Shown piece by piece: positions 23,586 to 61,090 of a stretch of DNA of 64,000 bases (within the stretch, counting starts at the first letter, position 1; each line of letters starts with the position of its first letter). The notes below the pieces were generated by a model that was not told the origin of the DNA, made no database searches, and saw nothing but the letters and a program-made list of their open reading frames with translations. This DNA comes from a virus. The stretch is from the IMG/VR virus record IMGVR_UViG_3300013099_000017, positions 64,001 to 128,000 of that record, one strand, 5' to 3'. A program made the translations under genes and the position numbers.

Positions 23586-23903
23586 ATGAATTTAAAGTTT
23601 GATAAAGAACATTGGTTAAAAGATAAAGAGTATTTTAACAAAAATGATGGTGTTGATCTTGATGTTGAATTAATGGATAAGTATAAATATTATTTTTTTG
23701 GTTTTATAGATTCTCCTGTTGATATATATGAGAATGTTGTTATTGAAGCCAAATCAAATAATTTTCATAATGAAGATAAATTAAGATTATATCTTGATTC
23801 ATATCGTGGTACTTGTAAAAAATTGATATTGTATTGTATTTTACGAAATAATAATGATATGTTAAGATTAAGATATGTAATAATTCCGGAGGATGTTGAA
23901 TAA
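23586..23903 (+). CDS. Hypothetical protein, tandem paralog A
   Basis: FDKEHWL.DKE...LDVELMDKYK.YFFGF shared with next ORF. Confidence 0.75.
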   Translation: MNLKFDKEHWLKDKEYFNKNDGVDLDVELMDKYKYYFFGFIDSPVDIYENVVIEAKSNNFHNEDKLRLYLDSYRGTCKKLILYCILRNNNDMLRLRYVIIPEDVE

Positions 23904-28444: not shown

Positions 28445-28452
28445 TATAAATA
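28445..28452 (+). promoter_or_regulatory. T4-type late promoter
   Basis: TATAAATA 27 nt upstream of ATG 28480. Confidence 0.7.
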
Positions 28453-28479
28453 GATAAAATAACTTTATAAGGTCAATTA

Positions 28480-29418
28480 ATGTTAAAATTCAAAAACTAT
28501 CTTGTTGAACAGGATTTATTAAATGAGAAACTATTATTAATTAATAGTGGTAAAAAATATGGACAGGTAGTTTTTCTTGCTGGTGGTGCTGGTTCTGGAA
28601 AGGGGTTTGCTGGAAATAATTTTATGAATATTCAGGATTTTAAAGTTCGGGATGTTGATGAAATGAAAAAAGCATATCTTACACTTAATAAATTGAGACA
28701 CAAATATCCTGAATTAGATGGACTTGATTTAAAAAAACCAGAAGATGTTTTTAAAATGCATGGTTTTATTAAGAAAAAAGGTACAGTTAAATCTACATTA
28801 GATAATATGCTTTCTGTTATTGTAAATCCAAACATTTTACCAAATATCGTATTTGATGTTACATTACAGTATGTTTCTAAAATTGATGATACCGTTCCAT
28901 TATTAATCAAAGCTGGATATAAACCCGAAAATATTCATATTATATGGGTGTTGACTGATTATGAAATTGCATTTAAAGCAAATTTGGAAAGGGATCGTAT
29001 TGTTCCTTATGGTAAAGATGGTACACCAAATATTATATTAGATACTCATGTTGGTGCAAGTAAAACAATGTGGAATATTGTTGGTAAAAATAATATTCCA
29101 AAATCAATTAATGGCGGTATTTATGTTATACTGAATAATCGTGATCAAACTATTGTATTTAAAGAAGGTGATAAAAAAGATTTCAGAACAGCAAAAGATG
29201 ATAAAGATGCACCAGCAAAAATAACAACAAGCCCTAGAAAATATGTTAGTAAAAGTAGTGAGAATTACAAAAAGAAAACTATCGTTGTTAAAGATTTCAC
29301 ATATTTAACATATAAAGAACCTGGGAAGGCTCCCAAAAAAGATAAAGAAATTTATAAACAGTTATTTGGATGGGTTAAAGCTAATATTCCAAAATCAGCA
29401 TTAAAATTCATTAATTGA
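28480..29418 (+). CDS. P-loop kinase (zeta-toxin/AAA_33-like) with an internal-protein-like N-terminus
   Basis: MLKFKNYLVE; FLAGGAGSGKG; DVDE; VFDVT; N..R.R.V. Confidence 0.7.
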   Translation: MLKFKNYLVEQDLLNEKLLLINSGKKYGQVVFLAGGAGSGKGFAGNNFMNIQDFKVRDVDEMKKAYLTLNKLRHKYPELDGLDLKKPEDVFKMHGFIKKKGTVKSTLDNMLSVIVNPNILPNIVFDVTLQYVSKIDDTVPLLIKAGYKPENIHIIWVLTDYEIAFKANLERDRIVPYGKDGTPNIILDTHVGASKTMWNIVGKNNIPKSINGGIYVILNNRDQTIVFKEGDKKDFRTAKDDKDAPAKITTSPRKYVSKSSENYKKKTIVVKDFTYLTYKEPGKAPKKDKEIYKQLFGWVKANIPKSALKFIN

Positions 29419-47055: not shown

Positions 47056-49425
47056 ATGTCAGAAGAACTAATACTTACCAATTTAATACATAATGATGAA
47101 TTTATAAAAAGAGCATTACCCTTCCTAAAATTATCATATTTTCAATATGAAGAAAATAAATTAATCTTTGAGCAATATGTCAGATACTACGCAAAGTATA
47201 ATACAAAACCAACGGCTGAAACTCTTGCTCACGAAATAGCAGAAATAGAAGAAATTCGTGATGATACCCTTGAAAACACATTGGAAAGTTTGGGTGATCT
47301 TGAACAGGATGAAGAACCCAATATTGAATGGTTAGTAAATACAACCGAGGGTTTTTGTCAAGAACGTGCTATTTATAATGCTATTCAAAATTCAATTGAC
47401 ATTATTGATGGTGTTGATGAAAAACACACTAAACACGCTATTCCCGATATTCTTAAAAAAGCCTTATCAATTTCATTTGATGTTAAGTTAGGTCATGATT
47501 ATTTAGAAGATGCTGAAAAGCGTTTTGAATTTTATAATTTAGATCATCCAAGAATCGAATTTGACATTGAAATGTTGAATAAAATTACCAATGGTGGTTG
47601 TCCAAGAAAAACTTTAAATGTTCTATTAGGAACCACTAATGTAGGTAAAGCTGAAAGTATTTTTACTAAATTATTAACTCCAACTGGAATTAAAATGTTT
47701 GGTGATTTAAAAGTTAATGATTATGTTTATGGTAGTGATGGAAATCCAACTAAAATTATCAATACATATCCCCAGGGAGAATTACCATTATATGAAATAA
47801 CATTCAAAGATGGTAGATCAACACAATGTTCATATGAACATCTTTGGAATGTATATAAAGGCGATAATAAAGAACAAATTACAATTGATTCTAATGAAAT
47901 ATTTAGGTTGATGGATTTAAAATATTACAGTAAAAGATTATGGATACCATTATCTAAACCAATTAATTTCAATAAAGAATATAATTTTAATATAGATCCA
48001 TATTTAATGGGTGTTTATTTGGGTGATGGTACTACAATGGCTGAATCTATTGGAATATCATCTAATGATAACCATATTATTGAAAAAATAAAAAATATCA
48101 TTGATATTGATGATATGGATATCAAATATAAATCAAAATACGATTATATAATTAAGTCTAGGTTCACTGGTGAAAATGAATATTTAACAGAGTTAAAACA
48201 ATATAATTTATTTAAAGTGAAATCAGATAAAAAGTTTATTCCAAAAGAAATGATGAATTCTACAATTCAAAACAGATGGGATTTATTGACAGGATTGATT
48301 GATTCTGATGGATATTGTGGTAAACATGGAACATTACAATATTATACTACAAGTGAACAACTTAAAAATGATGTAATTGATCTTGTAAGAAGTTTAGGTG
48401 GGATTGCCACAAGTAAAGATAAACAAACATATTGTAATGGAAAAAAAGGATTACCATCTTATGATATAATGATTAAAATTAATCCTGAAAATGGATTAAA
48501 TATTAGTCCAAATAAAAAGAATGTGGAAATATTTAATAATAGAATAAAAATTCCAAAACTAAAAATTGAATCAATAAAGAAAATACACAAAGAAGAATGT
48601 ATGTGTATTAAAGTTGAAGCAAAAGATCATTTATATTTAACAAAGGATTTTATTGTTACTCATAATACATTGGGATTAGTACATATGGCAACTGCATATA
48701 TGAATCTTGGTTATAATGTTGCATATATCACAGCGGAAATGAGTGAAGAAGCAATTGGTAATCGTGTTGATGCTAATGAATTTCAAGTTAATGTGAATGA
48801 TGTAGAAGATATGGATTTCGATATCTTCATGAATAAAATTAATGCCATTAAGAATAAAACAAAGGGTCGATTAAAAATACACGAATATCCTACAAGTACA
48901 GCTCATACAGGTCATATTAAGACATTATTACAAGAATGGCAATTGAAGATGAATTTCACGCCAGATATTATAATGATAGATTATATAAATATTATGGCAA
49001 GTAGTAGGGTCAAGTTAGCTAATACCGGATCATATTTTTACATTAAAGCCATTGCCGAAGAATTTAGAGCATTGGCAGTAGAAACAAATACAGTTTTATG
49101 GACTGCTACTCAATCAAATCGAGGCGGTGCTAATAATCCAGATGTTGATTTAACTGATACGAGTGAATCATTTGGTTTACCTGCAACTGCTGATTTTATG
49201 TTGGCATTAATCAGAACAGAAGAATTGGATGCTTTGGGTCAATTAATGATCAAACAATTAAAATCAAGATATGGCAATAAGGGCTATTATGAGAAATTTG
49301 TAATTGGTTCTAACATTAATACAATGAGTTGGTATGATGTTGATGATACTGCTCAATTTGATGATGTTATTAAAGAAGATACAAAGCAAAAACATAAGGG
49401 GAAATTCGATGATTTTAAAATTTAA
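47056..49425 (+). CDS. gp41: Replicative helicase gp41 (DnaB family), interrupted by an intein
   Basis: Walker A GTTNVGK|T split by the intein; AEMSEE, IDYINIM, ATQSNR, SESFGLPATAD, KSRYG. Confidence 0.95.
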   Translation: MSEELILTNLIHNDEFIKRALPFLKLSYFQYEENKLIFEQYVRYYAKYNTKPTAETLAHEIAEIEEIRDDTLENTLESLGDLEQDEEPNIEWLVNTTEGFCQERAIYNAIQNSIDIIDGVDEKHTKHAIPDILKKALSISFDVKLGHDYLEDAEKRFEFYNLDHPRIEFDIEMLNKITNGGCPRKTLNVLLGTTNVGKAESIFTKLLTPTGIKMFGDLKVNDYVYGSDGNPTKIINTYPQGELPLYEITFKDGRSTQCSYEHLWNVYKGDNKEQITIDSNEIFRLMDLKYYSKRLWIPLSKPINFNKEYNFNIDPYLMGVYLGDGTTMAESIGISSNDNHIIEKIKNIIDIDDMDIKYKSKYDYIIKSRFTGENEYLTELKQYNLFKVKSDKKFIPKEMMNSTIQNRWDLLTGLIDSDGYCGKHGTLQYYTTSEQLKNDVIDLVRSLGGIATSKDKQTYCNGKKGLPSYDIMIKINPENGLNISPNKKNVEIFNNRIKIPKLKIESIKKIHKEECMCIKVEAKDHLYLTKDFIVTHNTLGLVHMATAYMNLGYNVAYITAEMSEEAIGNRVDANEFQVNVNDVEDMDFDIFMNKINAIKNKTKGRLKIHEYPTSTAHTGHIKTLLQEWQLKMNFTPDIIMIDYINIMASSRVKLANTGSYFYIKAIAEEFRALAVETNTVLWTATQSNRGGANNPDVDLTDTSESFGLPATADFMLALIRTEELDALGQLMIKQLKSRYGNKGYYEKFVIGSNINTMSWYDVDDTAQFDDVIKEDTKQKHKGKFDDFKI
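47650..48666 (+). mobile_element. 339-aa intein with a LAGLIDADG endonuclease; class 3 (WCT) signature
   Basis: Starts with Ala (AESIF); block B EHLW; block F ECMCI; ends VTHN before Thr; GVYLGDG and GLIDSDG motifs. Confidence 0.88.
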
Positions 49426-49444
49426 TTCAACTGAGACTATTTAA

Positions 49445-50446
49445 ATGGGATTCTTTGATTTTTGGGATAAAGATATATCTGATGAAGATAAGAAAATTGC
49501 ATATGAAAAGTGTAAGCATATTGCACCACCACCATTAGAACCCCCTGCCCAACATCCACCAGAAGTAATAGAAGAATATAATGAAAAACGTTTAGAGTGT
49601 ATGCGTATTCAGCAAGATATTCTTTATTATAGTAAAATTCAACATTTGTGTATTAAAAGTGGGGAACATATTGAAGATAATAGATTTTCTGATATAGTTG
49701 CTAAGGCATGGATTAATTGTTGGAAACAATATCCTTCAACAGAAGAATATATTGAAATGTATGGTCTTGATCCATATACAGAATGTTTCCATTGTGAAAA
49801 AGATAAACAGGGTAAACTAATTGATGAACGTGAAATTTGTAATCCATGTAATCCTTGTGTAAATTTTGAATATGATGGTAATTGTACTAAGTGGCAATAT
49901 TGGTATATGATTTTTGATGTTAAATCTCAAAGATTTTGGAGACAACCAACAACAAAAGAACCAATATGGGATTGTGAACAACAAGCTATCCAAGCATGGG
50001 AGGAAGATAATCCACCAAAATCTGCTGGTAAACAACAAATATCATTTCATGATCCCTTGAAACAACAGGGTAATTTCTGTCCAAAATATGAAAGTCAAAT
50101 TACAGGTGATCCCGAAAAAGATAAAAATATTCCAAAAGTGGAAAATAGTTTTAAATGGTGTGTACCAAGATGGAATGATCAATGTCGTTTTTTTGTTATG
50201 AAATTTAAAAATAATATGATTTCCATTAATGATAGTGATACCATGTACACATCTTGGACAATGATTAAAAAATGTAATCAAGAAGAATGTGATTTAGCCG
50301 AAGCAGAAGATGAAGATTCATCTTTGAATAGATTGGCAAGACATGCCCGATATTGTATTAATAGATGTTTTGATGTTGATCCAAAACATGCAATCTATCC
50401 TGCATGGGAAGGAAATTTAGTAAATTATACTCATAAAGGATGGTAA
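49445..50446 (+). CDS. Cys/Trp-rich hypothetical protein
   Basis: 333-aa ORF with many Cys residues and a Pro-rich N-terminus. Confidence 0.7.
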   Translation: MGFFDFWDKDISDEDKKIAYEKCKHIAPPPLEPPAQHPPEVIEEYNEKRLECMRIQQDILYYSKIQHLCIKSGEHIEDNRFSDIVAKAWINCWKQYPSTEEYIEMYGLDPYTECFHCEKDKQGKLIDEREICNPCNPCVNFEYDGNCTKWQYWYMIFDVKSQRFWRQPTTKEPIWDCEQQAIQAWEEDNPPKSAGKQQISFHDPLKQQGNFCPKYESQITGDPEKDKNIPKVENSFKWCVPRWNDQCRFFVMKFKNNMISINDSDTMYTSWTMIKKCNQEECDLAEAEDEDSSLNRLARHARYCINRCFDVDPKHAIYPAWEGNLVNYTHKGW

Positions 50447-50455
50447 TTTTCAAAT

Positions 50456-50463
50456 TATAAATA
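50456..50463 (+). promoter_or_regulatory. T4-type late promoter heading the internal-protein-like array
   Basis: TATAAATA 21 nt upstream of ATG 50485. Confidence 0.75.
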
Positions 50464-50484
50464 CTATAAAATAGGATAGTTTGA

Positions 50485-51303
50485 ATGAAATATAACAATA
50501 TCACATATGATGAATATGTGGATGCTTTAAATGAAATTGCATTGCTTGACGAAAATGGTCAATTAAATGAGGGTATCTTAGATTCATTGTCGGGTTTAAC
50601 TGGTAAGGTTGGTAAATTTATATCAACTGCTAAAAAAACTATGGGTGAACTTGTTGATTCTACTAAACTTGAAACCCGTGATATAATTAAAGCATTTAAA
50701 AATAGAGAAATTTTTTCAGTATTGAAGAAAGTTGGGTTTAGTATTAAGAAATTACTGATGATGCTTAAAGCAGGACAAAAAGCATTAAATGGTGGTTTAA
50801 ATAAAATATTCAAAGAAATCCACAATCATAAAATATTACAAAAAATTCATAGTGGTGTTATGACTGTTGATGAATTTATCAACAAATATCCCATTCTTAA
50901 TAAAATAGGTGGAATTGCTGTTGCTGGAATTTTATTGTGGATATGGTTAAATATGTCATTTACGGGAGCAAGTCTTGATTTTGACATTGATCAATCTTCT
51001 CTATTAGATGCATTAGCTGGCAATTATTCATTAGCCGATCTATTTACATCCCCTACTGGTTTAAAAACAATAGCATTTTTAGCGGTTGGTTTATCCGGTA
51101 TTTCTGTTATAGCTTATTTTCCTGTAACTGCATATAATCTTACTATGAGTATTATCTATACAGGACTTAAAAAATCCAACTTCAAAGATCAATCCACTAT
51201 GCACAAAATAAAACATCATATTTTTAAAATAGCAGAAAAATGTGATTATAAAATGTCATTTAAGCAATTTAATAAATACAGTAAAATACAGGAAGTATTA
51301 TGA
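50485..51303 (+). CDS. Putative internal/virion protein with C-terminal hydrophobic segments
   Basis: TYDEY..ALNE...LNEG N-terminus. Confidence 0.6.
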   Translation: MKYNNITYDEYVDALNEIALLDENGQLNEGILDSLSGLTGKVGKFISTAKKTMGELVDSTKLETRDIIKAFKNREIFSVLKKVGFSIKKLLMMLKAGQKALNGGLNKIFKEIHNHKILQKIHSGVMTVDEFINKYPILNKIGGIAVAGILLWIWLNMSFTGASLDFDIDQSSLLDALAGNYSLADLFTSPTGLKTIAFLAVGLSGISVIAYFPVTAYNLTMSIIYTGLKKSNFKDQSTMHKIKHHIFKIAEKCDYKMSFKQFNKYSKIQEVL

Positions 51304-51497
51304 TTACAAAATACAGAGAATATCTTATTGAAGGCGTAAATCAAGTTTTCAAAAAATTTCCGGATTACGAAAGTCGGAAAAAAGAATTAAATAGATTAGT
51401 TGATAAGCGTGGAGATCAATCTTCAAATTTATCTAAACAAGAACAAAAAAACTATATCACATTAACTGATTGGTGGGATGAAAAGGGAAAAGATTAA
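51300..51497 (+). CDS. Putative internal head protein
   Basis: MITKYREYLIE. Confidence 0.6.
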   Translation: MITKYREYLIEGVNQVFKKFPDYESRKKELNRLVDKRGDQSSNLSKQEQKNYITLTDWWDEKGKD

Positions 51498-52126
51498 TGA
51501 AAAGTTATAAAGCATTACAAGAAGAATTAAATAAGCCAAGTGAAGTATTAATTGAAGATATTATGTCAATCATTGCTATTCGTGGGGCAGATCAAACTCA
51601 ATTATATGAAGCATTTGATGCTGATTGTGATCATATCTTAAATGAAGGTATTATGGATGTTCTTAAAATGGATGTTCGTACCGTTGCCAAAAATGTCGAT
51701 GGTTTGCTTAGTAAGGGTTTAAAAAAGGTTGGATTACACACACATAAGGGTAAGGGTATTATCTCTTATATAATGAGTGCAGGTAAAGGTGTGGGTAAAA
51801 TGGTTTTAGCTGGTATCCGTGGTGATTCTGAAACAGTTAAAGAACTTGCTCGAAGTGTTAAAAAAGAAGATGTTTTGGATTTTGTATTAAAACTTGACAT
51901 GGCTACACAACACTTAATTACCGGACCAATTCATATGATCGATGCTTGGACGGGTTGGCATATTGGGGCAAATTTAGAAAACGTTATTCGTGGTAAGGAT
52001 GGTATCGTTGCGAAAATTAAAGGTGCTTTTCAGACAATTAAACAAAATATTGGTCATGTGGTTGATAAAACCCGTGTGGCAGTATTTAATAAAGGTATTA
52101 GTCAACTTGAAGCAGAAATCAGTTAA
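51497..52126 (+). CDS. Putative internal head protein
   Basis: MKSYKALQEE, later ILNEG. Confidence 0.6.
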   Translation: MKSYKALQEELNKPSEVLIEDIMSIIAIRGADQTQLYEAFDADCDHILNEGIMDVLKMDVRTVAKNVDGLLSKGLKKVGLHTHKGKGIISYIMSAGKGVGKMVLAGIRGDSETVKELARSVKKEDVLDFVLKLDMATQHLITGPIHMIDAWTGWHIGANLENVIRGKDGIVAKIKGAFQTIKQNIGHVVDKTRVAVFNKGISQLEAEIS

Positions 52127-52198
52127 TTGGAACTAATTAATAAATAATTGCTTTAATATGTAAAATATGTTAAACTGAGGGGATAAAGGAGAATATTA

Positions 52199-52366
52199 AT
52201 GATATCATATGAAGAATATCTTAATATCAACAGAGGTATTGTTGGTGTTTATCATACAGAAGATGTAGCAAAGAATCAAAAAAAGAAATTAAAGGTATAT
52301 TATTCCGGTTTAAATGTTCAACGAAGTAAATCAGGTGATTATATTCTTTACGGAATACCATTATAA
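52199..52366 (+). CDS. 55-aa putative internal head protein, not in track
   Basis: AAGGAG RBS; MISYEEYLN; TTGCTT-N17-TAAACT promoter upstream. Confidence 0.6.
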   Translation: MISYEEYLNINRGIVGVYHTEDVAKNQKKKLKVYYSGLNVQRSKSGDYILYGIPL

Positions 52367-52382
52367 ATTAAGGAAAAAACAA

Positions 52383-52565
52383 ATGAAAAAGAATTATAAA
52401 GAGTTTTTGGAAGAACAAAGAGAAGTTCTAACAGAAAGTGAAAAATGGGCTAAATCAGAAGCTATGAAAGTTTTAAATGCTCATTTCAAGAAAATGGAAC
52501 ACAAAATGGAAGTATCGGAAGCGGAATCATTTCAAAATTTCATCAATAAAATGAAAAAAGGTTAA
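52383..52565 (+). CDS. Putative internal head protein
   Basis: MKKNYKEFLEE...VLTE; AAGGA RBS. Confidence 0.6.
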   Translation: MKKNYKEFLEEQREVLTESEKWAKSEAMKVLNAHFKKMEHKMEVSEAESFQNFINKMKKG

Positions 52566-52570
52566 GTAAA

Positions 52571-53080
52571 ATGCAACAAAATGCTTACTGGATCAATCCA
52601 AGGGGCAAAATCCTTGATATTGGAATGGGAACACACATTAATCAGATTATTAAATCACCAAAATCGTTTGGATTGACAGAACGTTATATTCGTAATGTCT
52701 ATGAAAAATTTGGTGAGCCAATGAGTCTTGAAGGTAAAGCCCGTGAACAAATCATGTTGGAAGTTATCAAGGATGGATTTGTTCGTATCAGATTGGTTCC
52801 AAATAGATTTTGGTTAGTCAATGCTAATAAATATGATCGAAAATTAAAAAAAGCATTATCTGTTTGGGCTGGTGATGCCAAAGATGTAAAAAATGCAGGT
52901 AAATTTATGCCTGTCAAAATTGTTACTAACAGTGAAGTAGTAAGCACATATGATGTTAATGATTTATATTATGAAAAACATTTGAATGAATCTGATAACA
53001 TATCCGGTTATAATCCTATTATGGTTGAAAGTGTTGAAGATTTCAAATATTCAAAATATCAACAACTTAGGAACTTATGA
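52571..53080 (+). CDS. Hypothetical protein
   Basis: AYWINPRG..L...H motif; no targeting-like N-terminus. Confidence 0.7.
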   Translation: MQQNAYWINPRGKILDIGMGTHINQIIKSPKSFGLTERYIRNVYEKFGEPMSLEGKAREQIMLEVIKDGFVRIRLVPNRFWLVNANKYDRKLKKALSVWAGDAKDVKNAGKFMPVKIVTNSEVVSTYDVNDLYYEKHLNESDNISGYNPIMVESVEDFKYSKYQQLRNL

Positions 53081-53667
53081 AAACATTTAAACAATTTAAT
53101 AAATCAGGTAGAAATGTAGAAATTTCAAAGTATTCATTATCAGATGCTATTGAATATTCACAAAGTCAATTCCGTGAATATGGTAAAGACTTATATGAAG
53201 AAATACCAAACTTTGATAAGAACTTTGAAATAGCTCAAATGAAAGCGAGTACGGGTAGAACATTAAGAAAAGATATGCCTGTAATTTCAAGAAAAGATAT
53301 TGCTGATTTCAAAGTATTTCTTAAAGAAAAAGGTGTTAAATTTAAATTAAAGAAACAGGAAGTTAGTAAATTTCATCCAATTCAAAAACAAATTTATTTA
53401 AATAAATCTATTGATATTATTGCTAAATTTAGTGTTCAAGATTCTAAAAACTTCTTAACTGATTCTAAAACTGTTAGTGTATTATCGAGAGATAATTATC
53501 TTATTGATGGACATCATAGGATGCTTACAGGGTTATTAATAAATCCTAAAATGAAATTTAATACCATTATTGTTGATTTACCTGCAATTGAATTATTACC
53601 ACTAGCGTTAGAATTTTCAGATGATCATACTAGTAATACACGAAACGAATCATATGAAAAAGTTTAA
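53077..53667 (+). CDS. ParB-like N-terminal-domain protein, paralog A
   Basis: MKTFKQF; HPIQKQIY; YLIDGHHR. Confidence 0.75.
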   Translation: MKTFKQFNKSGRNVEISKYSLSDAIEYSQSQFREYGKDLYEEIPNFDKNFEIAQMKASTGRTLRKDMPVISRKDIADFKVFLKEKGVKFKLKKQEVSKFHPIQKQIYLNKSIDIIAKFSVQDSKNFLTDSKTVSVLSRDNYLIDGHHRMLTGLLINPKMKFNTIIVDLPAIELLPLALEFSDDHTSNTRNESYEKV

Positions 53668-54082
53668 AGAATATTTAAAAGAAGAATGGTATCAAACATA
53701 TAAGATACCAAGTTTAAAAGATCCATTAAATATCTTTAAAAATCCATCAAGAAAAGAAATAATGGAATTAGCAAAACAAGATTTTGATAGTTTTAGAGTA
53801 TTATTGATGGATAATGGTGATGTTTATGCATGGTCAAAAGCAATTCATGCACAAGCACATAAAGCATTAAAATTGAATGATAAATTTATTCCTGCTTATA
53901 TTGAATTTGCTGGAAATACTGGTGTAATTACTATTACAGATTTTATAAATAAATCATATTGGGGTGATCATCGTGAAATGGTTGCTGAACAAGTTAGAAC
54001 CAACAAACATTTAAAAAAATTATTCAATAATATAAAAATTGGATATTACAACAAACGTTCAACCGGAGATTGGGAACAATGA
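53654..54082 (+). CDS. Putative internal head protein
   Basis: MKKFKEYLKEE; IFKNPS..E. Confidence 0.6.
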   Translation: MKKFKEYLKEEWYQTYKIPSLKDPLNIFKNPSRKEIMELAKQDFDSFRVLLMDNGDVYAWSKAIHAQAHKALKLNDKFIPAYIEFAGNTGVITITDFINKSYWGDHREMVAEQVRTNKHLKKLFNNIKIGYYNKRSTGDWEQ

Positions 54083-54456
54083 AAAAATTTAAAGATCTAT
54101 TAACTGAAATAACATTACAACGTGCAGTAACAAAAGAACCAATATTGAATAAAATTAAGAAATTATTTCAAAATAAATTCGATAAAACAAATAATAATTT
54201 ATTTTTTATGGATAAAAAAGATGCGATTAAACGATTAAAATCTTATGGATTATCTGATGAAGAAATCAAAACGATTGAAACTGTTGCCTATTCTGAAATG
54301 AAAAAGATTATGACAAAATATAATATTGCTTTTCGTGGAAATGATCCATTTGTACTTCATGGATTTAATTTATTTTGGGAGCGTAGTTTTGGTGATGAAA
54401 AAACTGCCGATAAAGCATATAAAGAATATTTAAATAACATTAAGCAGAAACTATAA
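54079..54456 (+). CDS. Putative internal head protein
   Basis: MKKFKDLLTE. Confidence 0.6.
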   Translation: MKKFKDLLTEITLQRAVTKEPILNKIKKLFQNKFDKTNNNLFFMDKKDAIKRLKSYGLSDEEIKTIETVAYSEMKKIMTKYNIAFRGNDPFVLHGFNLFWERSFGDEKTADKAYKEYLNNIKQKL

Positions 54457-54614
54457 TGAAAAGTTTTAAAGAATTAAACGAAAATGTATTGACAAAAGAA
54501 ATGGATTTTGTTGATGATAGTTCATCAAAATATAATTATTTAGATCAACTTGATAGTCATTTAAGTGGTATAATTACAGTATCAGAAGCTCTTGAAAGGG
54601 AATATAAAAAATGA
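54456..54614 (+). CDS. 52-aa putative internal head protein, not in track
   Basis: TAATG overlap; MKSFKELNE. Confidence 0.55.
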   Translation: MKSFKELNENVLTKEMDFVDDSSSKYNYLDQLDSHLSGIITVSEALEREYKK

Positions 54615-54627
54615 GTGATATAGATAT

Positions 54628-55569
54628 ATGAAAAAATTTAAAGCATTTTTAAAAGAACAACCATCCGAAGCTCAGATAAAAGCTGGGAATTATAAGAAAA
54701 AACATATGCGATTTTGTACTTGTGATATAGCAATTGAAAATCGTAAAGGGTCAGTTCGTTCTGGTACTGATCCCGATGGTAAAGAATGGTCTGTAAAAAT
54801 GCCGTTTGATTATGGTTATATTAAAAGAACCAATGGTGCTGATGGTGATGCTGTTGATGTGTTTGTTGGTCCCGATAAAAAGAGTGAACGTATCTTTACA
54901 ATTAATCAAACTGATGATAAAGGAAAGTTTGATGAACATAAAGTAATGATGGGTTTTACTGACAAAAAGGATGCAGAAAAAGGTTATCTATCTGCATACG
55001 ATAAGGGTTGGTCTAACTATGAGAAAGATATTATAGAAATGGATATTGATACTTTTAAAAAGTGGTTGGATGTTAAATCACAAAAGAAACCAATGACCGA
55101 AAGTTTTGTATTATTACTTAAAGAAAATACCGAGATAAATGGTTTAGCTCAAATGAAAAAATTTGCTAAAAGTGCAATTTTAAAAATGTCCCAAACAGAA
55201 CAGTTATCTGAAATGTCATTTGCTCAAATGAAATCAGTTGAGCAACATGCTGATGATATTTTTTCATCATTAAACATTGATGTTAAGTTAAGGGGTCATT
55301 TCTTTGATAGATTGAATGATGCAAGAAATGGTCGTGAAATTACCGAAGCTGAAATGATACATTTATTTAATGCCACATTTAAAAAGTATGGGGCTAAAAT
55401 AGCTCATATGTCAAAGGGTCATGAAGCTGTTATATTTGATCATATGAATAATATTAATGTTCCATTTTTAATAGACTTTGATAATGTTACCGGACAACTG
55501 GTATTGATACCAAAAACGGTTATGAGAAAAAAGAATTTTCTAACAAGAACACAAAAATTAAAGGTGTAA
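54628..55569 (+). CDS. Phage inorganic-pyrophosphatase-like domain fused to a second domain
   Basis: MKKFKAFLKE; GNYKK..IENRKGS.RSG.D..G..W...YGYI..T.G.DGD..DVF.G...FDEHKVM.G; C-terminal HFFDRLND.RN. Confidence 0.75.
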   Translation: MKKFKAFLKEQPSEAQIKAGNYKKKHMRFCTCDIAIENRKGSVRSGTDPDGKEWSVKMPFDYGYIKRTNGADGDAVDVFVGPDKKSERIFTINQTDDKGKFDEHKVMMGFTDKKDAEKGYLSAYDKGWSNYEKDIIEMDIDTFKKWLDVKSQKKPMTESFVLLLKENTEINGLAQMKKFAKSAILKMSQTEQLSEMSFAQMKSVEQHADDIFSSLNIDVKLRGHFFDRLNDARNGREITEAEMIHLFNATFKKYGAKIAHMSKGHEAVIFDHMNNINVPFLIDFDNVTGQLVLIPKTVMRKKNFLTRTQKLKV

Positions 55570-55571
55570 AA

Positions 55572-55844
55572 ATGAAATCATATAAAGAATTTAACAAATT
55601 ATCAGAAGGATTTGCCAATAAATTAAGGTCTGGTAAAGTTCCGGTTGGTGAATATAGATTTAAATATGTATCAAAGGGAAATGTTGATTTTATATCAAAT
55701 TCAACTAAACATAGAAAAAGTTTAAAAGTAATTGAAAAAGGTAGAGATTATGTTATCATTAATGGTAATGCAAATGATCATTCATCTTTAATTACATCAT
55801 TGCAATCATTTGGGGATATTAACGGTTATGTCGAAGAAGAATAA
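55572..55844 (+). CDS. Putative internal head protein
   Basis: MKSYKEFNKLSE. Confidence 0.6.
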   Translation: MKSYKEFNKLSEGFANKLRSGKVPVGEYRFKYVSKGNVDFISNSTKHRKSLKVIEKGRDYVIINGNANDHSSLITSLQSFGDINGYVEEE

Positions 55845-56190
55845 CAAATACGATCAATTTTTAGATAACATTGAAGATCCTGCCGAAAAAATGGTAAAGG
55901 AAAATAAAATTCCTGTTGATTATAAATTGATCCATAATATGACAAAAGAAATATGGTCATATGAAAATGAAAACGGTGATCTTAGTGAAATATTTAAAAG
56001 TAAAGATGAAGCATTATTAAGTATTTGGAATGAAAAATATTTAAATGAATCATCTAAAGAAAATGGGATGGTTGGTGAAGCGATTGATATATTATCATTA
56101 ACTAATACAAGAATAACGGATTCTTCCATTACATCTAAATTAGAAAAAATCATAAACGAATTAAGTTCGATCCAAAGGAAAATCAAATGA
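55828..56190 (+). CDS. Putative internal head protein
   Basis: MSKKNNKYDQFL; later YLNE. Confidence 0.55.
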   Translation: MSKKNNKYDQFLDNIEDPAEKMVKENKIPVDYKLIHNMTKEIWSYENENGDLSEIFKSKDEALLSIWNEKYLNESSKENGMVGEAIDILSLTNTRITDSSITSKLEKIINELSSIQRKIK

Positions 56191-56492
56191 GTAAATATAA
56201 AGAATATTTAAACGAAGCAAATAGTGGTAAATATGAAATTTATCATGATTCATTAACAAGTGCCGTTCAAGAAATGGAATCATATGTTGTTAAAAATGGT
56301 TATACGTTGGATGATGAAGAAATGGCTGAAACCGTAGGGTTTGGTCCAAAAAAACCTTCTGGTGGAAAAACTAACCGATATACCATGTCGTTATATAAGG
56401 ATGGTAAAAAGCAACGTAAGGCTATTCATTTCCAAGTTTATAATCGTGAAACAAAACGAAACACTTTTGAGTTAAATATGTATATTAGATGA
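56187..56492 (+). CDS. Putative internal head protein
   Basis: MSKYKEYLNEA. Confidence 0.65.
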   Translation: MSKYKEYLNEANSGKYEIYHDSLTSAVQEMESYVVKNGYTLDDEEMAETVGFGPKKPSGGKTNRYTMSLYKDGKKQRKAIHFQVYNRETKRNTFELNMYIR

Positions 56493-56935
56493 AAAAATTT
56501 AAACAATTCTTAAATGATTACAGTAAAAAAGCTCCAGTATTGGAGGCAAAGAATGTCTATGCTGTCAATTTTACATTTAGAGATTTAAAGAAAATCATAC
56601 AACTTGAAGATTCACCAAATGATTATATTGATCAATTAACAACGATCATGAAATTGAGTAATTCAAAAGGTGGTGCAACCATTAATGAAATGATATTTAA
56701 TGGTTGGGAAAAACAAATCAAGAAATATACCAAAGACATTATATTAATTGAAAAATTATCAAATCGTTTCATTAATGGTGATAAATCTGAAACAATTATT
56801 GAAATTTATAAAACCTTTCCTGATGATAAGGAATGGATTAAAGAATTAAATACAAATTCTAATAAAATTAATAAAGAATTAAAAACCCCATTAGAAGAAT
56901 TATTTTTAGCATTAGGTAAAAAAGAATGGATATGA
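56489..56935 (+). CDS. Putative internal head protein
   Basis: MKKFKQFLND..VLEA. Confidence 0.6.
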   Translation: MKKFKQFLNDYSKKAPVLEAKNVYAVNFTFRDLKKIIQLEDSPNDYIDQLTTIMKLSNSKGGATINEMIFNGWEKQIKKYTKDIILIEKLSNRFINGDKSETIIEIYKTFPDDKEWIKELNTNSNKINKELKTPLEELFLALGKKEWI

Positions 56936-57444
56936 AATCATTTAAACAATTTAATGAGGGTAATTTATCTAAACTTAAATCACTAAAAAAGTCCAAAACA
57001 GATAACATCAAATCATTTGATAGATTAGGTAAGGGTGATAAAATTACAATTGGTAATAAAAATATCATTTTATCTAATAGAGTTGAATTGAAAACACATC
57101 CTTATGAACTTGATGGATGGTATATCGCATTAGCACAAGATGGAAATGATTCTTATTATATTACAAAATCTAAAAATTCAGATACTTATAAATTATATAA
57201 AGCATTAAAATTATCACAAGTTGGTTCAGAATATGAACCAATTGCAAAATCACCAAAATTAACTAAAAATAAAATTATTATAGAAGATATAAAAATTCCT
57301 ATAAAAGTTGGTGATATTGTATTGGGTGGTAAATTTAAAAACAAAAAAATCAAAGTTAAATCTATTGGTAAAAATGAAAAAGGTGATATCACCATTAACA
57401 ATAGACCATTATTAAAATTTAGAATAATCGATCAGGATAAATAA
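56932..57444 (+). CDS. Putative internal head protein with a C-terminal SH3-like module
   Basis: MKSFKQFNE; IKVGDIVLGGKFKNKKIKVKSIG. Confidence 0.6.
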   Translation: MKSFKQFNEGNLSKLKSLKKSKTDNIKSFDRLGKGDKITIGNKNIILSNRVELKTHPYELDGWYIALAQDGNDSYYITKSKNSDTYKLYKALKLSQVGSEYEPIAKSPKLTKNKIIIEDIKIPIKVGDIVLGGKFKNKKIKVKSIGKNEKGDITINNRPLLKFRIIDQDK

Positions 57445-57776
57445 TGATGCAAGACATATATCAAGTTATAGTTCGGGGAAATTTTTGGGGTGGTCGATAC
57501 TATGAAGATAGTTTGGATTCTATTTTTGTATTGGCTGATGATAAGCAAGATGCTGTTAATATAGCAAAATCAAATATTGAACAAGTTGAAGTTCATTTTA
57601 GAAATAAAAGGTATTATGGTGGAAAGTTGGCTATTGCTAAACACGATAAATATAAATTTAAAGAACGTAATATTTGTGTTGCCAAAACATCATACCAAAA
57701 AGTTTATAATAAAACATTAACAAAACACGGAAACTTTGAAAAAGTAAATCTAAACACATTAGGGACAAATGAATGA
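57444..57776 (+). CDS. Hypothetical protein
   Basis: 110-aa ORF with TAATG overlap. Confidence 0.65.
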   Translation: MMQDIYQVIVRGNFWGGRYYEDSLDSIFVLADDKQDAVNIAKSNIEQVEVHFRNKRYYGGKLAIAKHDKYKFKERNICVAKTSYQKVYNKTLTKHGNFEKVNLNTLGTNE

Positions 57777-58486
57777 ATACATTTAAACAATATTTAATTG
57801 AAGCTGGACAAGGGGCAGGACAACTTGAATTAGTAAAAACAGACGTTAAAAAAGCAAGGGAATATGCTGAAAAAGATTTTCAAAAATATGATCGTGATTT
57901 AGATGAACAAATTCCTGATTTTGATAAGAATTATTTATTTGCTCAAAAACAAGCAGGGTCAGGTAAAACACAACGTAAAGATATGCCTGTAATTGAAGAA
58001 AAAGATGTTAAGGATTTACAGCGTAGACTAGAAAATGGTCATATTGATATTAAATCACCACATCCTAAAAATACTAAACATCCTTTTCCAAAAGGACTAA
58101 CACAACAAACCGGACATCAATGGTTGGAAAATGGATTAAAGCGTCATGATGGTAGTATTAAAGATGATATCGTAAAAGTTAAGATGGAGCAAGTTACCGT
58201 TGGGTCATTACATCCAATACAAAAACAAATATATTTTGATAAGTCAATTAATCCAATTGCAGAAAATGGTGCTGTTAAATCAAAAGCATTTATGACAGGA
58301 AAAAATACTACTTTCATTATGTCAAAAGATCATTACATCATTGATGGACATCATAGATTTTTAGCTTCTGTATTATTAGATCCAACAATGAAAGTTAATT
58401 CATTGGTTATTGATTTACCAATTAAAGATTTACTACCATTAACATTATCCTACTCAGATGCAGTAGGAAACAAAAGGAACGCATAA
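57773..58486 (+). CDS. ParB-like N-terminal-domain protein, paralog B
   Basis: MNTFKQYLIEA; KDMPVI; HPIQKQIY; YIIDGHHR. Confidence 0.75.
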   Translation: MNTFKQYLIEAGQGAGQLELVKTDVKKAREYAEKDFQKYDRDLDEQIPDFDKNYLFAQKQAGSGKTQRKDMPVIEEKDVKDLQRRLENGHIDIKSPHPKNTKHPFPKGLTQQTGHQWLENGLKRHDGSIKDDIVKVKMEQVTVGSLHPIQKQIYFDKSINPIAENGAVKSKAFMTGKNTTFIMSKDHYIIDGHHRFLASVLLDPTMKVNSLVIDLPIKDLLPLTLSYSDAVGNKRNA

Positions 58487-58487
58487 C

Positions 58488-58754
58488 ATGGCATTTACAC
58501 ATATACCAAATAACTCAGATTGGGAATACGATAACGCACCTCCTGACCCTGGAGGAAAACAATCTAATTTGTGGAATAAACAAGTTAATGGTATTCGTGT
58601 TAATTCTGGTGGTGATGAAGTTTACTCACATTGTCGAAAAATTGGAACAAGTGTACAAACTTCCGGTGAGTTAAATAAATCTTATTGGGATAATCAAAGA
58701 ATATCATTTAATGTTACTGGTGGTTCCGGTGAATCAGTACATGTTGCTAATTAA
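58488..58754 (+). CDS. Hypothetical protein
   Basis: 88-aa Gly/Asn-rich ORF. Confidence 0.6.
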   Translation: MAFTHIPNNSDWEYDNAPPDPGGKQSNLWNKQVNGIRVNSGGDEVYSHCRKIGTSVQTSGELNKSYWDNQRISFNVTGGSGESVHVAN

Positions 58755-58759
58755 CATTG

Positions 58760-58767
58760 TATAAATA
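58760..58767 (+). promoter_or_regulatory. T4-type late promoter
   Basis: TATAAATA upstream of ATG 58784. Confidence 0.7.
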
Positions 58768-58783
58768 ATTACATGGAATTAAT

Positions 58784-59221
58784 ATGAAAAATCTCTTTGA
58801 AGATGGTGAACCAACAAATAGTGTAAGTGCTGGATCAATGGATTCACATGAAGCAACTGATGGTAAAAGAAAAAAAGAAAAAACAAAAATAGCAAGGCGT
58901 AAAAAAATGAAAAAATATAAAGAATATCAGGAATCATTGAAAGAAGATCATGTTGATGATGGTTGGGTTCAATATCAATATGAAGATTCAACATCAATGA
59001 AAAAAGCAGTTGTTAATTTAAATATTTCACCAGAAGATTATGTTATGTATCCTGTTGAAAAATATATTGAATTTAAAAAAGAAAGTGATTTGGAAGCAGT
59101 TTTAAAAATCATTGACGATCCACATCATCAAAAACCATTCCATCCATATCACGAACATGAACATGATGATCATATAAGTGATTATGAATACGATTATGAA
59201 GAAGAAGATTTAGAATTATAA
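58784..59221 (+). CDS. Late hypothetical protein with an acidic His-rich tail
   Basis: LFEDGEPTNSV; internal MKKYKEYQE at 58907. Confidence 0.65.
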   Translation: MKNLFEDGEPTNSVSAGSMDSHEATDGKRKKEKTKIARRKKMKKYKEYQESLKEDHVDDGWVQYQYEDSTSMKKAVVNLNISPEDYVMYPVEKYIEFKKESDLEAVLKIIDDPHHQKPFHPYHEHEHDDHISDYEYDYEEEDLEL

Positions 59222-59244
59222 TATCAAATTAAGGAAGTTAAACA

Positions 59245-59667
59245 ATGAGTAAAAATATAAACATAGCACCAAGTTATTGTCCGAAAGCCAAAGCAACTAA
59301 ACGTGGTTGGGAAGATCCTGAAACTGGTGAATTATTGGTATCCAATAAAAGTTTGGATTTAGAGTTAATTAATTCTGGTGTTTCATTAAATGATGTTGTT
59401 TCAGCAAACGTTGAAACTACCACAAAAGATGAAACCTTATATGATGAATTAGTTGAAATGAATAAGGAATTGGAAGAATTAGTTGAAATGAATAAGGAAT
59501 TGGAAGAAGAACCTGTTGAATTGGCAGAAAAAACCGAAGAAAAAATTAATTTAAGTACCATGAATAAAACTGAAATCATTGCTTATGCTGAGAATGTTTT
59601 AGATTTAGAATTGAGTATGGATGATACTAAAAAAAGTTTAATTGAACAAATAAAAAACCAAAAGTAA
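59245..59667 (+). CDS. Conserved T4-like protein upstream of primase
   Basis: RGWEDPETGELLVS; C-terminal K.EI..YA...L.L..TK..LI. Confidence 0.65.
   Translation: MSKNINIAPSYCPKAKATKRGWEDPETGELLVSNKSLDLELINSGVSLNDVVSANVETTTKDETLYDELVEMNKELEELVEMNKELEEEPVELAEKTEEKINLSTMNKTEIIAYAENVLDLELSMDDTKKSLIEQIKNQK
59446..59505 (+). repeat. Perfect 30-bp in-frame tandem duplication
   Basis: GAATTAGTTGAAATGAATAAGGAATTGGAA x2 (ELVEMNKELE). Confidence 0.9.
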
Positions 59668-59670
59668 AAT

Positions 59671-60024
59671 ATGAATGATAATGATGATTTTGTTCAGTAT
59701 TGTATAAAAAACTACAAAGCACGTTTTTTCTCACTGGATGAATTTAAAAAAGATTTAAGTACCGTAACCAATATTAAAAAAATGTTATCACGGTACTTAA
59801 CATCCAATAAAATTAATGAAAGACTTGTTTTAAATCATGTAATTACACTCAATAATGTATTTGGTGTGGAAGCAACTAATGTTATATTATTCTATAAATT
59901 GGAAGATAAATTTTATCCTGCCATTAAATCTATATTAATATTTCTTAATATATACATTCAGAGCAATCTTACACATAGAATAAAACAAGATGTTAAATTA
60001 ACCGATTTATTAGAAATATCTTGA
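59671..60024 (+). CDS. Conserved T4-like hypothetical protein
   Basis: EFKKDL...IK....RY......ERLVLNH.I.L.NVFG pattern recalled from T4-like phages. Confidence 0.75.
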   Translation: MNDNDDFVQYCIKNYKARFFSLDEFKKDLSTVTNIKKMLSRYLTSNKINERLVLNHVITLNNVFGVEATNVILFYKLEDKFYPAIKSILIFLNIYIQSNLTHRIKQDVKLTDLLEIS

Positions 60025-60049
60025 CATAATATATATATTGTGCTAAACT
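60021..60049 (+). promoter_or_regulatory. Consensus sigma70 promoter for primase
   Basis: TTGACA-N17-TAAACT with TG extension. Confidence 0.75.
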
Positions 60050-60085
60050 GGGTCAAATGAAATAAATTCATAATGAGAACGATTA

Positions 60086-61090
60086 ATGGCAGATCCGTAC
60101 ATAGACATGAAGTATATTCGATTGTTATCAACACAATTGAGAAATTACAAGGAAAAGAAAAATAATTTAATTAATTTTTCGTGTCCGATATGTGGTGATT
60201 CTGAAAAAGATAAGCTCAAAGCAAGAGGTTATATCTATGAAAAACAAAACAAATATCAATATAAATGTCATAATTGCAATGTTGGTATGTCTGCTGGAAA
60301 TTTAATTAAAGCTGTTAATCCGGAATTATGGAAAGAATGGAAAGCTGAGAAATTTAAAAGTAAATATAAGCCAAAACCAAAATTCAACAATTCATTATTT
60401 AAGAATAAACCAAAGATACTTGATTATGTATTAGGTATGGAATCTTTAGATAAATTAGATGATGATCATGTTGCTGTTCGTTATGTTAAAAGTAGATTAA
60501 TACCCAAAGAACAATATCATAGAATTTATTACACGGATAATATAAATAAAATTGGTGTTCAATTGGGATATGATGATAAATTTCCTGTTGCTGATATGAT
60601 TGTATTTGAATTTATCAATATGGATGGGAGAACTACACACATTCAAGGTCGATATATTGATCCACAATCAAAAGAATTTAGATTTGTTACATTGGATATG
60701 ATGAAAGATCAACCAAAAATATTTGGTTTAGAAACAATCGATCCAACTAAAAAAGTATATATTGTTGAAGCACCAATTGACAGTTTATTTTTACCAAACT
60801 GTATTGCTTATGCAGGATCAAGCCTAAATACATTTACACCCGAATATGATGATTTTACAATCATTTTGGATCGAGAACCTAAAAATTCAGTAATTGTGAA
60901 AATTATGATGAAATGTATTGAAAAGGGATTCCCCATTGCTATTTTACCAAATGATTTAGACGGTAAAGATATTAATGATTATGTGAAGTGGGGATATGAT
61001 CTCATTCCCTTAAAGGAATTGATTGACAATAATACCTTTCAGGGAATGAAAGCGAAATTAAAAATGACATTATGGAGAAAAGGAATTTGA
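60086..61090 (+). CDS. gp61: DNA primase gp61
   Basis: CPICGDS...CHNC zinc finger; QGR; VEAPIDSLF TOPRIM; D.EP; KDIND. Confidence 0.95.
   Translation: MADPYIDMKYIRLLSTQLRNYKEKKNNLINFSCPICGDSEKDKLKARGYIYEKQNKYQYKCHNCNVGMSAGNLIKAVNPELWKEWKAEKFKSKYKPKPKFNNSLFKNKPKILDYVLGMESLDKLDDDHVAVRYVKSRLIPKEQYHRIYYTDNINKIGVQLGYDDKFPVADMIVFEFINMDGRTTHIQGRYIDPQSKEFRFVTLDMMKDQPKIFGLETIDPTKKVYIVEAPIDSLFLPNCIAYAGSSLNTFTPEYDDFTIILDREPKNSVIVKIMMKCIEKGFPIAILPNDLDGKDINDYVKWGYDLIPLKELIDNNTFQGMKAKLKMTLWRKGI

Follow-up and report, generated by a model that had tools for sequence, protein, structure and literature searches.

An array of genes with T4-type capsid-targeting-like leaders in an uncultured T4-like phage

The window analysed in this work (64,000 nucleotides, bases 64001-128000 of the 144,243-bp linear viral contig IMGVR_UViG_3300013099_000017, guanine-cytosine (GC) content 29%) carries at 50485-58486 a run of 18 consecutive plus-strand open reading frames (ORFs), whose stops and starts overlap or abut. 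A leader of the form M-K-x-[F/Y]-K-x-[F/Y]-L-x-E, or a close variant of it, stands at the start of 16 of these 18 ORFs, and the array of leader-bearing tandem genes is confirmed as real. It is probable, as judged from likeness to phage T4, that the array constitutes a late operon of T4-type capsid-targeted internal head proteins, the packaging, cleavage, injection and function of which are predicted from sequence.

According to the mechanism we propose, a T4-type capsid-targeting sequence (CTS), about 10 residues in length and more in a few cases, would head each product and, through its aromatic residues at positions 4 and 7, attach it to the scaffolding core of the prohead during assembly. 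A gp21-type (S77) prohead protease would then cut after (L/I)-x-E at positions 8-10 and free the mature cargo inside the head, from which it would exit with the DNA at infection and act ahead of any phage gene expression. The predicted cargo comprises an inorganic-pyrophosphatase-like (InPase) enzyme, two ParB/Srx-like proteins (NTPase or DNase-type), a hydrophobic-helix protein and about a dozen small basic proteins, and the most likely role for most of them would be disarming host defences or host takeover. The anti-defence role can be reasonably inferred by analogy with T4.

The leaders and their likeness to T4 capsid-targeting sequences

A sequence-only reading of the window had claimed that 16 of 18 tandem ORFs start like the T4 CTS, and both the ORF calls and our reading of the leaders agree with it. 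In the strict canonical register (M, an aromatic residue at position 4, K/Q/R at 5 and F/Y/L at 7) the leader is present in 12 ORFs, namely those starting at 51497, 53077, 53654, 54079, 54456, 54628, 55572, 56187, 56489, 56932 and 57773 and, nearly in register, 52199. One-residue insertions mark the leaders of two further ORFs (51300, MITKYREYLIE; 52383, MKKNYKEFLEE), another two carry looser variants (50485, MKYNNITYDEYVDALNE; 55828, MSKKNNKYDQFLDNIE), and the ORFs at 52571 and 57444 are without a leader. The ORFs at 52199 and 54456 are intact, occupy gaps and bear the leader, and no homologues of either were found.

Amino-acid composition alone would place the strict motif behind 0.3% of Met residues. 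On the plus strand it was counted behind 12 of the 79 Met positions of the array region and behind 10 of 1050 elsewhere (Fisher p = 2e-9). The consensus of 16 tabulated leaders, 13 from the array region (the one at 58907 included) and three dispersed, reads M16, K10, x, F10/Y6, K14, E7/Q5, Y7/F6/L3, L9, x, E8; without exception they have F or Y at position 4 and F, Y or L at position 7. The leaders at 50485, 51300, 52383 and 55828 fit only in a shifted register and stand outside this table. When the leaders were masked, all-against-all BLAST of the bodies found only 53077 and 57773 alike (E 2e-49), which upholds the earlier claim of mostly unrelated bodies.

The leader is conserved at the protein and not at the DNA level, because the DNA upstream of the leader-gene starts is unrelated and because four leaders in the related record G008 encode MKTFKEY by differing synonymous codons. 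It is kept by orthologues of genes 1, 11 (C-terminal domain), 12, 14, 16 and 18 of the array and of the dispersed gene at 28480, at body identities of 27-72%, and the homologues of 28480 in L164 and L103 start with it as well. Interpretation of the leader as a signal peptide or lipoprotein signal was ruled out, the leader being charged and not hydrophobic.

The conserved positions of the array leaders (4, 7, 8 and 10) are those that are functional in T4. As read from the T4 record AF158101, the leader of IpI begins MKTFKEF and that of both IpII and IpIII is MKTYQEFIAE/A (here and below a slash marks the cleavage site, a predicted one in the array). Amber-suppressor mutagenesis of the IpIII leader (Mullaney & Black, as reviewed in PMC9026906) assigned residues 4 and 7 to targeting and residues 8 and 10 to processing, and an Asp at position 10 of the T4 leader, according to the same review, blocks cleavage and keeps targeting. 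The array leaders resemble CTS propeptides (about 10-19 residues, MKT[YF][QK]EF-like, targeting residues at 4 and 7), and about 11-13 of 16 possess a clean (L/I)-x-E site. The earlier claim of T4-type capsid-targeting leaders stands as regards the leader match, the functional residues and retention in orthologues, and it holds only in part for the cleavage site. The leader of 56489 ends in LND at this site; since Asp at position 10 blocks cleavage and not targeting in T4, its product is predicted to be targeted but uncut there. The ParB-like family, to which 57773 belongs, additionally shares with T4 IpII the residues past the cut site (E/A-x-x-GAGK-x-E, 12 of 20 identical).

According to earlier work, the internal proteins (Ips) of T-even phages, of which at least 10 are on record, form a diverse set tagged with a CTS (PMC12373910, PMC3012670). 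They counter host defences and have the targeting sequence alone in common (PMC3012670), and Ip1-3 of T4 each inhibit a different GmrSD enzyme (PMC12373910). The statement of the sequence-only reading that T4 has only three such genes understated the set, in view of this T-even number and of T4 gene 61.1 (AF158101 18966-19130, minus strand; L193:1967-2131). The latter lies between genes 41 and 61 and encodes a 54-aa 'hypothetical' protein with the perfect leader MKTFKEFIKE/D; our literature search found no paper naming 61.1 an internal protein.

Late-expression signals, prohead protease and relatives

The T4-type late promoter motif TATAAATA is located at 50456-50463 on the plus strand, in a 38-nt gap and 22 nt before the first array gene. 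Together with a gp55 late-sigma homologue in the genome (tblastn 6e-19), it bears out the putative late promoter that had been proposed before the array. On the plus strand of the genome 12 of 22 occurrences of TATAAATA are intergenic, in 9% of the DNA, and 10 lie within genes. The motif is found 17-30 nt before the array, 28480, 58784 and genome position 133511 (motif at genome 133476), which are all the unit-initial leader genes, and it likewise precedes leader genes in L009, G003, G001, G008 and L170. Expression would accordingly be compatible with prohead assembly, by way of a T4 late promoter read by gp55. BLAST detected no copies of the early promoter cassette between 41.1 and 64 kb; such copies abound in the window's first 41 kb and are absent from its last 23 kb. 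Scans of the array region for sigma-70 promoters and terminators gave chance level only.

The prohead protease is assumed from relatives, because the contig has an estimated completeness of 79% and is without head genes. For the ParB-like leader protein 21 related loci were found in viruses, and Peptidase_S77 (gp21) is encoded by 4 of 5 larger records among them as well as by G008, which carries a six-gene leader array. The gene order in L009 is a leader gene, two small genes, gp21, gp22, gp23 and finally three leader genes, one of them the ParB-like gene, and gp23 of L009 carries an LAE/A site. A protein identical to that of gene 1 is also encoded on a 207,615-bp contig. PDB sequence searches for 57773 and 28480 returned empty, and single-sequence patterns found no syntenic contigs with the primase.

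The gene content of the contig is T4-like and comprises baseplate wedge proteins, a UvsW-type helicase, gp46/gp47 and gp43 polymerase, along with RNA ligase, phosphoesterases, a DnaB-like helicase, gp61 primase and ribonucleotide reductase. As the DNA polymerase is only 41% identical to that of the nearest cultured phage, a cyanophage, the contig represents a deep, uncultured T4-like branch, and megablast of the array against cultured phages gave no match. The sequencing runs that contain the stretch are sediment and marine metagenomes; window positions 49400-60100 occur letter-for-letter in several sediment metagenomes (runs X2-X5). Many related contigs part from the array sequence at gene borders, which may represent strain-level cassette exchange, although these joints (contigs of four runs) have short sides and were called at low stringency, so that they give a weak hint of cassette flux only.

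Leader genes are not confined to this contig. Under a loose motif about seven were counted in the complete 166-kb genome G003, six in G008 and about four in G001, and a strict DNA pattern matched 8 times in this phage, 4 times each in T4, G008 and G001, twice in G003, once or twice in Pelagibacter phage HTVC008M and not at all in Syn9, KVP40 and RB49. Leader counts and contents differ among G001, G003, G008, L006 and L009. The strictest form of the leader occurs in at least 120 stretches of a viral contig collection, tandem sets of 6-7 leader genes among them, and for this reason leader arrays are taken to be common in environmental phages. Such tandem sets were observed in the uncultured phage contigs L170, L141, L082 (G008 86066-88362) and L106, and L170, 5.4 kb long, holds little else.

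The array is positioned between the replicative helicase and the primase. Both L006, the closest relative fragment, and HTVC008M have leader genes upstream of the primase too; in HTVC008M (L194; 113582, 114973 and 115347) these are 2-3 hypothetical genes starting MKSFKDF, MRTYRAF and MKTFTDF, 3-5 kb upstream of the primase. Being cultured, this pelagiphage could serve as a test system.

Diverse Ips sharing a CTS are known from T-even phages; the novelty lies in the size of the set, about 21 genes where T4 has 3-4 and the sampled relatives have 4-7, in the remoteness of the lineage and in the presence of enzymes among the predicted cargo. A wider proposal, which we put forward tentatively and hold a little short of evenly balanced, is that the CTS tag is an ancient tool across environmental T4-like phages rather than something peculiar to T-even phages, and that the phage described here has the largest tagged set so far (about 21, in a sample too small to call it a record), equivalent to an unbundled polyvalent protein whose enzymatic and inhibitor modules were tagged singly and cassette-swapped at a conserved helicase-primase hotspot shared with T4 61.1. 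If this is true, the injected proteome of uncultured phages, effectors included, could be read from sequence alone with a motif of 10 residues, and virion proteomics would not be needed for it. Since injected proteins precede any reading of phage genes, they are what first counters restriction and other defences that act at once. The array would offer about 20 candidates at once, most of them without a known fold, and is a likely source of new host-manipulating proteins. Tag, late promoter and protease travel together far beyond enterobacterial T-even phages.

Gene content of the array and its surroundings

The product of gene 1 (50485-51303, 272 aa; variant leader MKYNNITYDEYVDALNE) contains hydrophobic helices as well as a second LNE/G, which is conserved. 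No Pfam or PHROG match was obtained for it, and all 22 of its 22 homologues keep Y-x-x-Y-[VLI]-x-AL-[DN]-E. Gene 2 (51300-51497, 65 aa, MITKYREYLIE/G) is followed by gene 3 (51497-52126, 209 aa, MKSYKALQEE), whose family neighbours the gene-1 family in relatives or is fused to it: in P0012 both form a single 434-aa protein in which the internal leader MKSFKNYVDDQLIE is retained. The segment LNEG[IM][LM]D is common to the gene-1 and gene-3 families and could be a second protease site. Gene 4 (52199-52366, 55 aa) starts with the weak variant MISYEEYLNI, lacking E10, and has GGAG upstream of its start. Gene 5 (52383-52565, 60 aa) starts MKKNYKEFLEE/Q; gene 6 (52571-53080, 169 aa) is without a leader and has no function assigned.

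The two ParB/Srx-like proteins are encoded by gene 7 (53077-53667, 196 aa, MKTFKQF), the short paralogue, and by the last gene of the run, gene 18 (57773-58486, 237 aa, MNTFKQYLIE/AGQGAGQLE), the N-terminus of which resembles T4 IpII. The motif IDGHHR is invariant in their family. The ParBc_2 (PF08857) score in Pfam reaches 18.1 bits, under the 23.6 cut-off, with weak matches in 7 of 18 family members. In the AlphaFold 2 model of 57773 (predicted local distance difference test score 82.6) the top 10 Foldseek matches are ParB/Noc chains and Srx appears from rank 12, at weak E-values of 0.03-0.3.

Between these two, gene 8 (53654-54082, 142 aa, MKKFKEYLKE/E), gene 9 (54079-54456, 125 aa, MKKFKDLLTE/I) and gene 10 (54456-54614, 52 aa, MKSFKELNE/N) precede gene 11 (54628-55569, 313 aa, MKKFKAFLKE/Q), which encodes an InPase domain (residues 14-147; Pfam PF18823, 6e-52, 175.4 bits vs a cut-off of 26.8, domain positions 1-134 of 135) and a C-terminal domain. 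Among PHROGs it is related to minor head, DarB-like and virion proteins. A portal of known structure (PDB 9b41) has an internal C-terminus that the InPase domain matches at 5e-30, and the segment DGDAVDV aligns to the region of the metal-binding Asp motif of E. coli PPase. The one viral locus found to be related to the InPase protein encodes a polyvalent protein of another phage, which is GC-rich (L188), and both InPase and ParB/Srx domains lie within this one 1464-aa protein. Polyvalent proteins that are injected contain both types of domain (PMC5512222). In L114 the C-terminal domain of 54628 stands alone behind its own leader, and leader and cargo are therefore recombined.

Downstream follow gene 12 (55572-55844, 90 aa, MKSYKEFNKLSE/G; 65% identity to its L006 orthologue), gene 13 (55828-56190, 120 aa, loose variant MSKKNNKYDQFLDNIE), gene 14 (56187-56492, 101 aa, MSKYKEYLNE/A; the G003 orthologue starts MIKKFKEFLNES), gene 15 (56489-56935, 148 aa, MKKFKQFLND, with Asp at position 10), gene 16 (56932-57444, 170 aa, MKSFKQFNE/G; its L006 orthologue, 72% identical, starts MKTFSKLKEG) and gene 17 (57444-57776, 110 aa), which is without a leader and has no function assigned. 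Pfam and PHROG scans detected no family for the remaining cargo, about a dozen small proteins. In the ESM Atlas, 52571 and 56932 obtained sub-threshold matches only, and an 'IpIV internal head protein' cluster (0.77), being below noise, was not used.

The array probably continues past 58486 with the ORF at 58784-59221, which a second TATAAATA (58760-58767, plus strand) precedes and which has an internal leader, MKKYKEYQESLKE/D, at 58907, making it a possible 17th member. A dispersed member is found at 28445-29418 on the plus strand, where TATAAATA at 28445 is followed by a 312-aa ORF (28480; MLKFKNYLVE/Q, phrog_5268). Other leader genes off the array start at genome positions 133511 and 135322 and possibly at 134487 (minus strand), which brings the genome to about 21 leader genes, about 16-17 in the array and 4-5 dispersed. 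Small neighbouring paralogues at 23673 and 23987 start MDKYK[YD]YFFGF; their likeness to the leader is superficial, and they were excluded from the count.

Several features were observed in the surroundings of the array. Directly upstream lies a Cys-rich ORF of 333 aa (49445-50446) with no family match and without a leader. The DnaB-like helicase (47056-49425, 789 aa) matches terminase and P-loop PHROGs at residues ~185-549, and its middle part may be an insertion such as an intein. The ribonucleotide reductase large subunit (window 62405 to genome 129746; L005:405-3746; 1113 aa) has an HNH-endonuclease-like segment at residues 351-392, which suggests an inserted mobile element.

Alternative explanations and comparison with known systems

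Several observations weigh against the assignment of the array to internal head proteins. No gp17, gp18, gp20, gp21, gp22 or gp23 was found on the 79%-complete contig; the missing head genes presumably lie in the absent fifth of the genome. Three to five leaders (53077, 52199, 55828, 56932 and 56489) are without a clean (L/I)-x-E at positions 8-10. The number of TATAAATA motifs in the whole window is not above chance (15 vs 23 expected), for which reason only their intergenic placement is telling. The helicase-primase (41-61) interval of T4 is an early or middle region. The ParB-like family occurs in no cultured phage and has only a weak partial match in an uncultured 735-kb record. Moreover, the basic isoelectric points of the cargo say little, as most proteins of a genome with 29% GC are basic.

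Among the alternatives, the one that fares best, which we nevertheless regard as unlikely, assumes that the proteins are loaded into the head by their leader and serve mainly inside the virion, for example by neutralising charge, condensing DNA or assisting the core or scaffold, rather than as anti-defence effectors. It would account for the small, Lys-rich and basic character of most of the cargo and for the dozen or so proteins without a recognisable domain, and T4 internal proteins do touch DNA phosphates via lysines (PMC3012670). However, the bodies are unrelated to one another and change from relative to relative, a pattern that suits an arms race more than a structural role. Packing does not call for enzymatic proteins (InPase, ParB/Srx), and the three characterised T4 Ips are all specific inhibitors of GmrSD-type (type IV) restriction enzymes (PMC12373910).

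A good deal less probable is an origin of the shared N-terminus that has nothing to do with targeting, as a feature of translation initiation or mRNA (an A-rich start) or as a recombination handle, with proteins that remain cytoplasmic in the producing cell. The leaders are indeed AAA/AAT-rich, a weak indication of cassette flux among strains exists, and the corresponding T4 interval is not late, yet the ~260 other genes of the genome are without the motif, and conservation at the amino-acid level with synonymous variation extends across genomes of 29-40% GC. The coincidence of the conserved positions with those for T4 targeting and cleavage also speaks against it, and the link of the leaders to TATAAATA and head genes would be left unexplained. 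It is hardly credible that the genes are tandem duplicates whose bodies diverged beyond recognition and whose N-terminus is the last remnant, given that only one clear paralogue pair (53077 and 57773) fits such an origin, whereas lengths range from 52 to 313 aa, recognisable domains have different folds (InPase, ParB/Srx, hydrophobic-helix protein) and the L114 domain alone behind its own leader points to shuffling of leader plus cargo and not to decay.

The preferred reading, a late operon of capsid-targeted internal head proteins, has its parallels first of all in T4. In this phage Alt, gp67 and gp68 enter the prohead core and undergo trimming by gp21; Alt is also injected. Prohead-core loading and gp21 trimming are what we propose for the array as well, whereas the leaders of gp67 and gp68, as read from the T4 record, are unlike the CTS; no ADP-ribosyltransferase was detected in the array. 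Closer is the likeness to T4 IpI-III and the T-even Ip set (Mullaney & Black 1996; Repoila et al. 1994, as cited in PMC12373910 and PMC9026906), with which the array shares aromatic residues at 4 and 7 and, in about 11-13 of the 16 leaders, (L/I)-x-E at 8-10. Common to both are also unrelated, small and mostly basic bodies at variable loci, a T4-type late promoter motif with gp55, and the IpII-like residues past the cut site that recur in the ParB-like family. In contrast to T4 with its three Ips, or four leader genes with 61.1, about 16-17 are gathered here in one operon and 4-5 more are dispersed; the phage is distant, none of the bodies is homologous to IpI or IpIII, and some of the cargo is enzymatic.

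The giant phages SPN3US and phiKZ (PMC5694885, PMC7411985) resemble the proposed system in having many head-internal proteins, a related prohead protease and ejection. Their ejection proteins differ in being large, with long propeptides, and have neither a common 10-residue tag nor a single tagged array. Polyvalent proteins of phages and conjugative elements (Iyer et al. 2017, PMC5512222), the P1 DarB/DdrB-type head proteins included, deliver ParB/Srx-like and InPase domains with the incoming DNA, as the array would. There, one giant multidomain polypeptide carries what separate small tagged proteins would carry in the phage described here, which would enter the head by the T4 scaffold and protease route.

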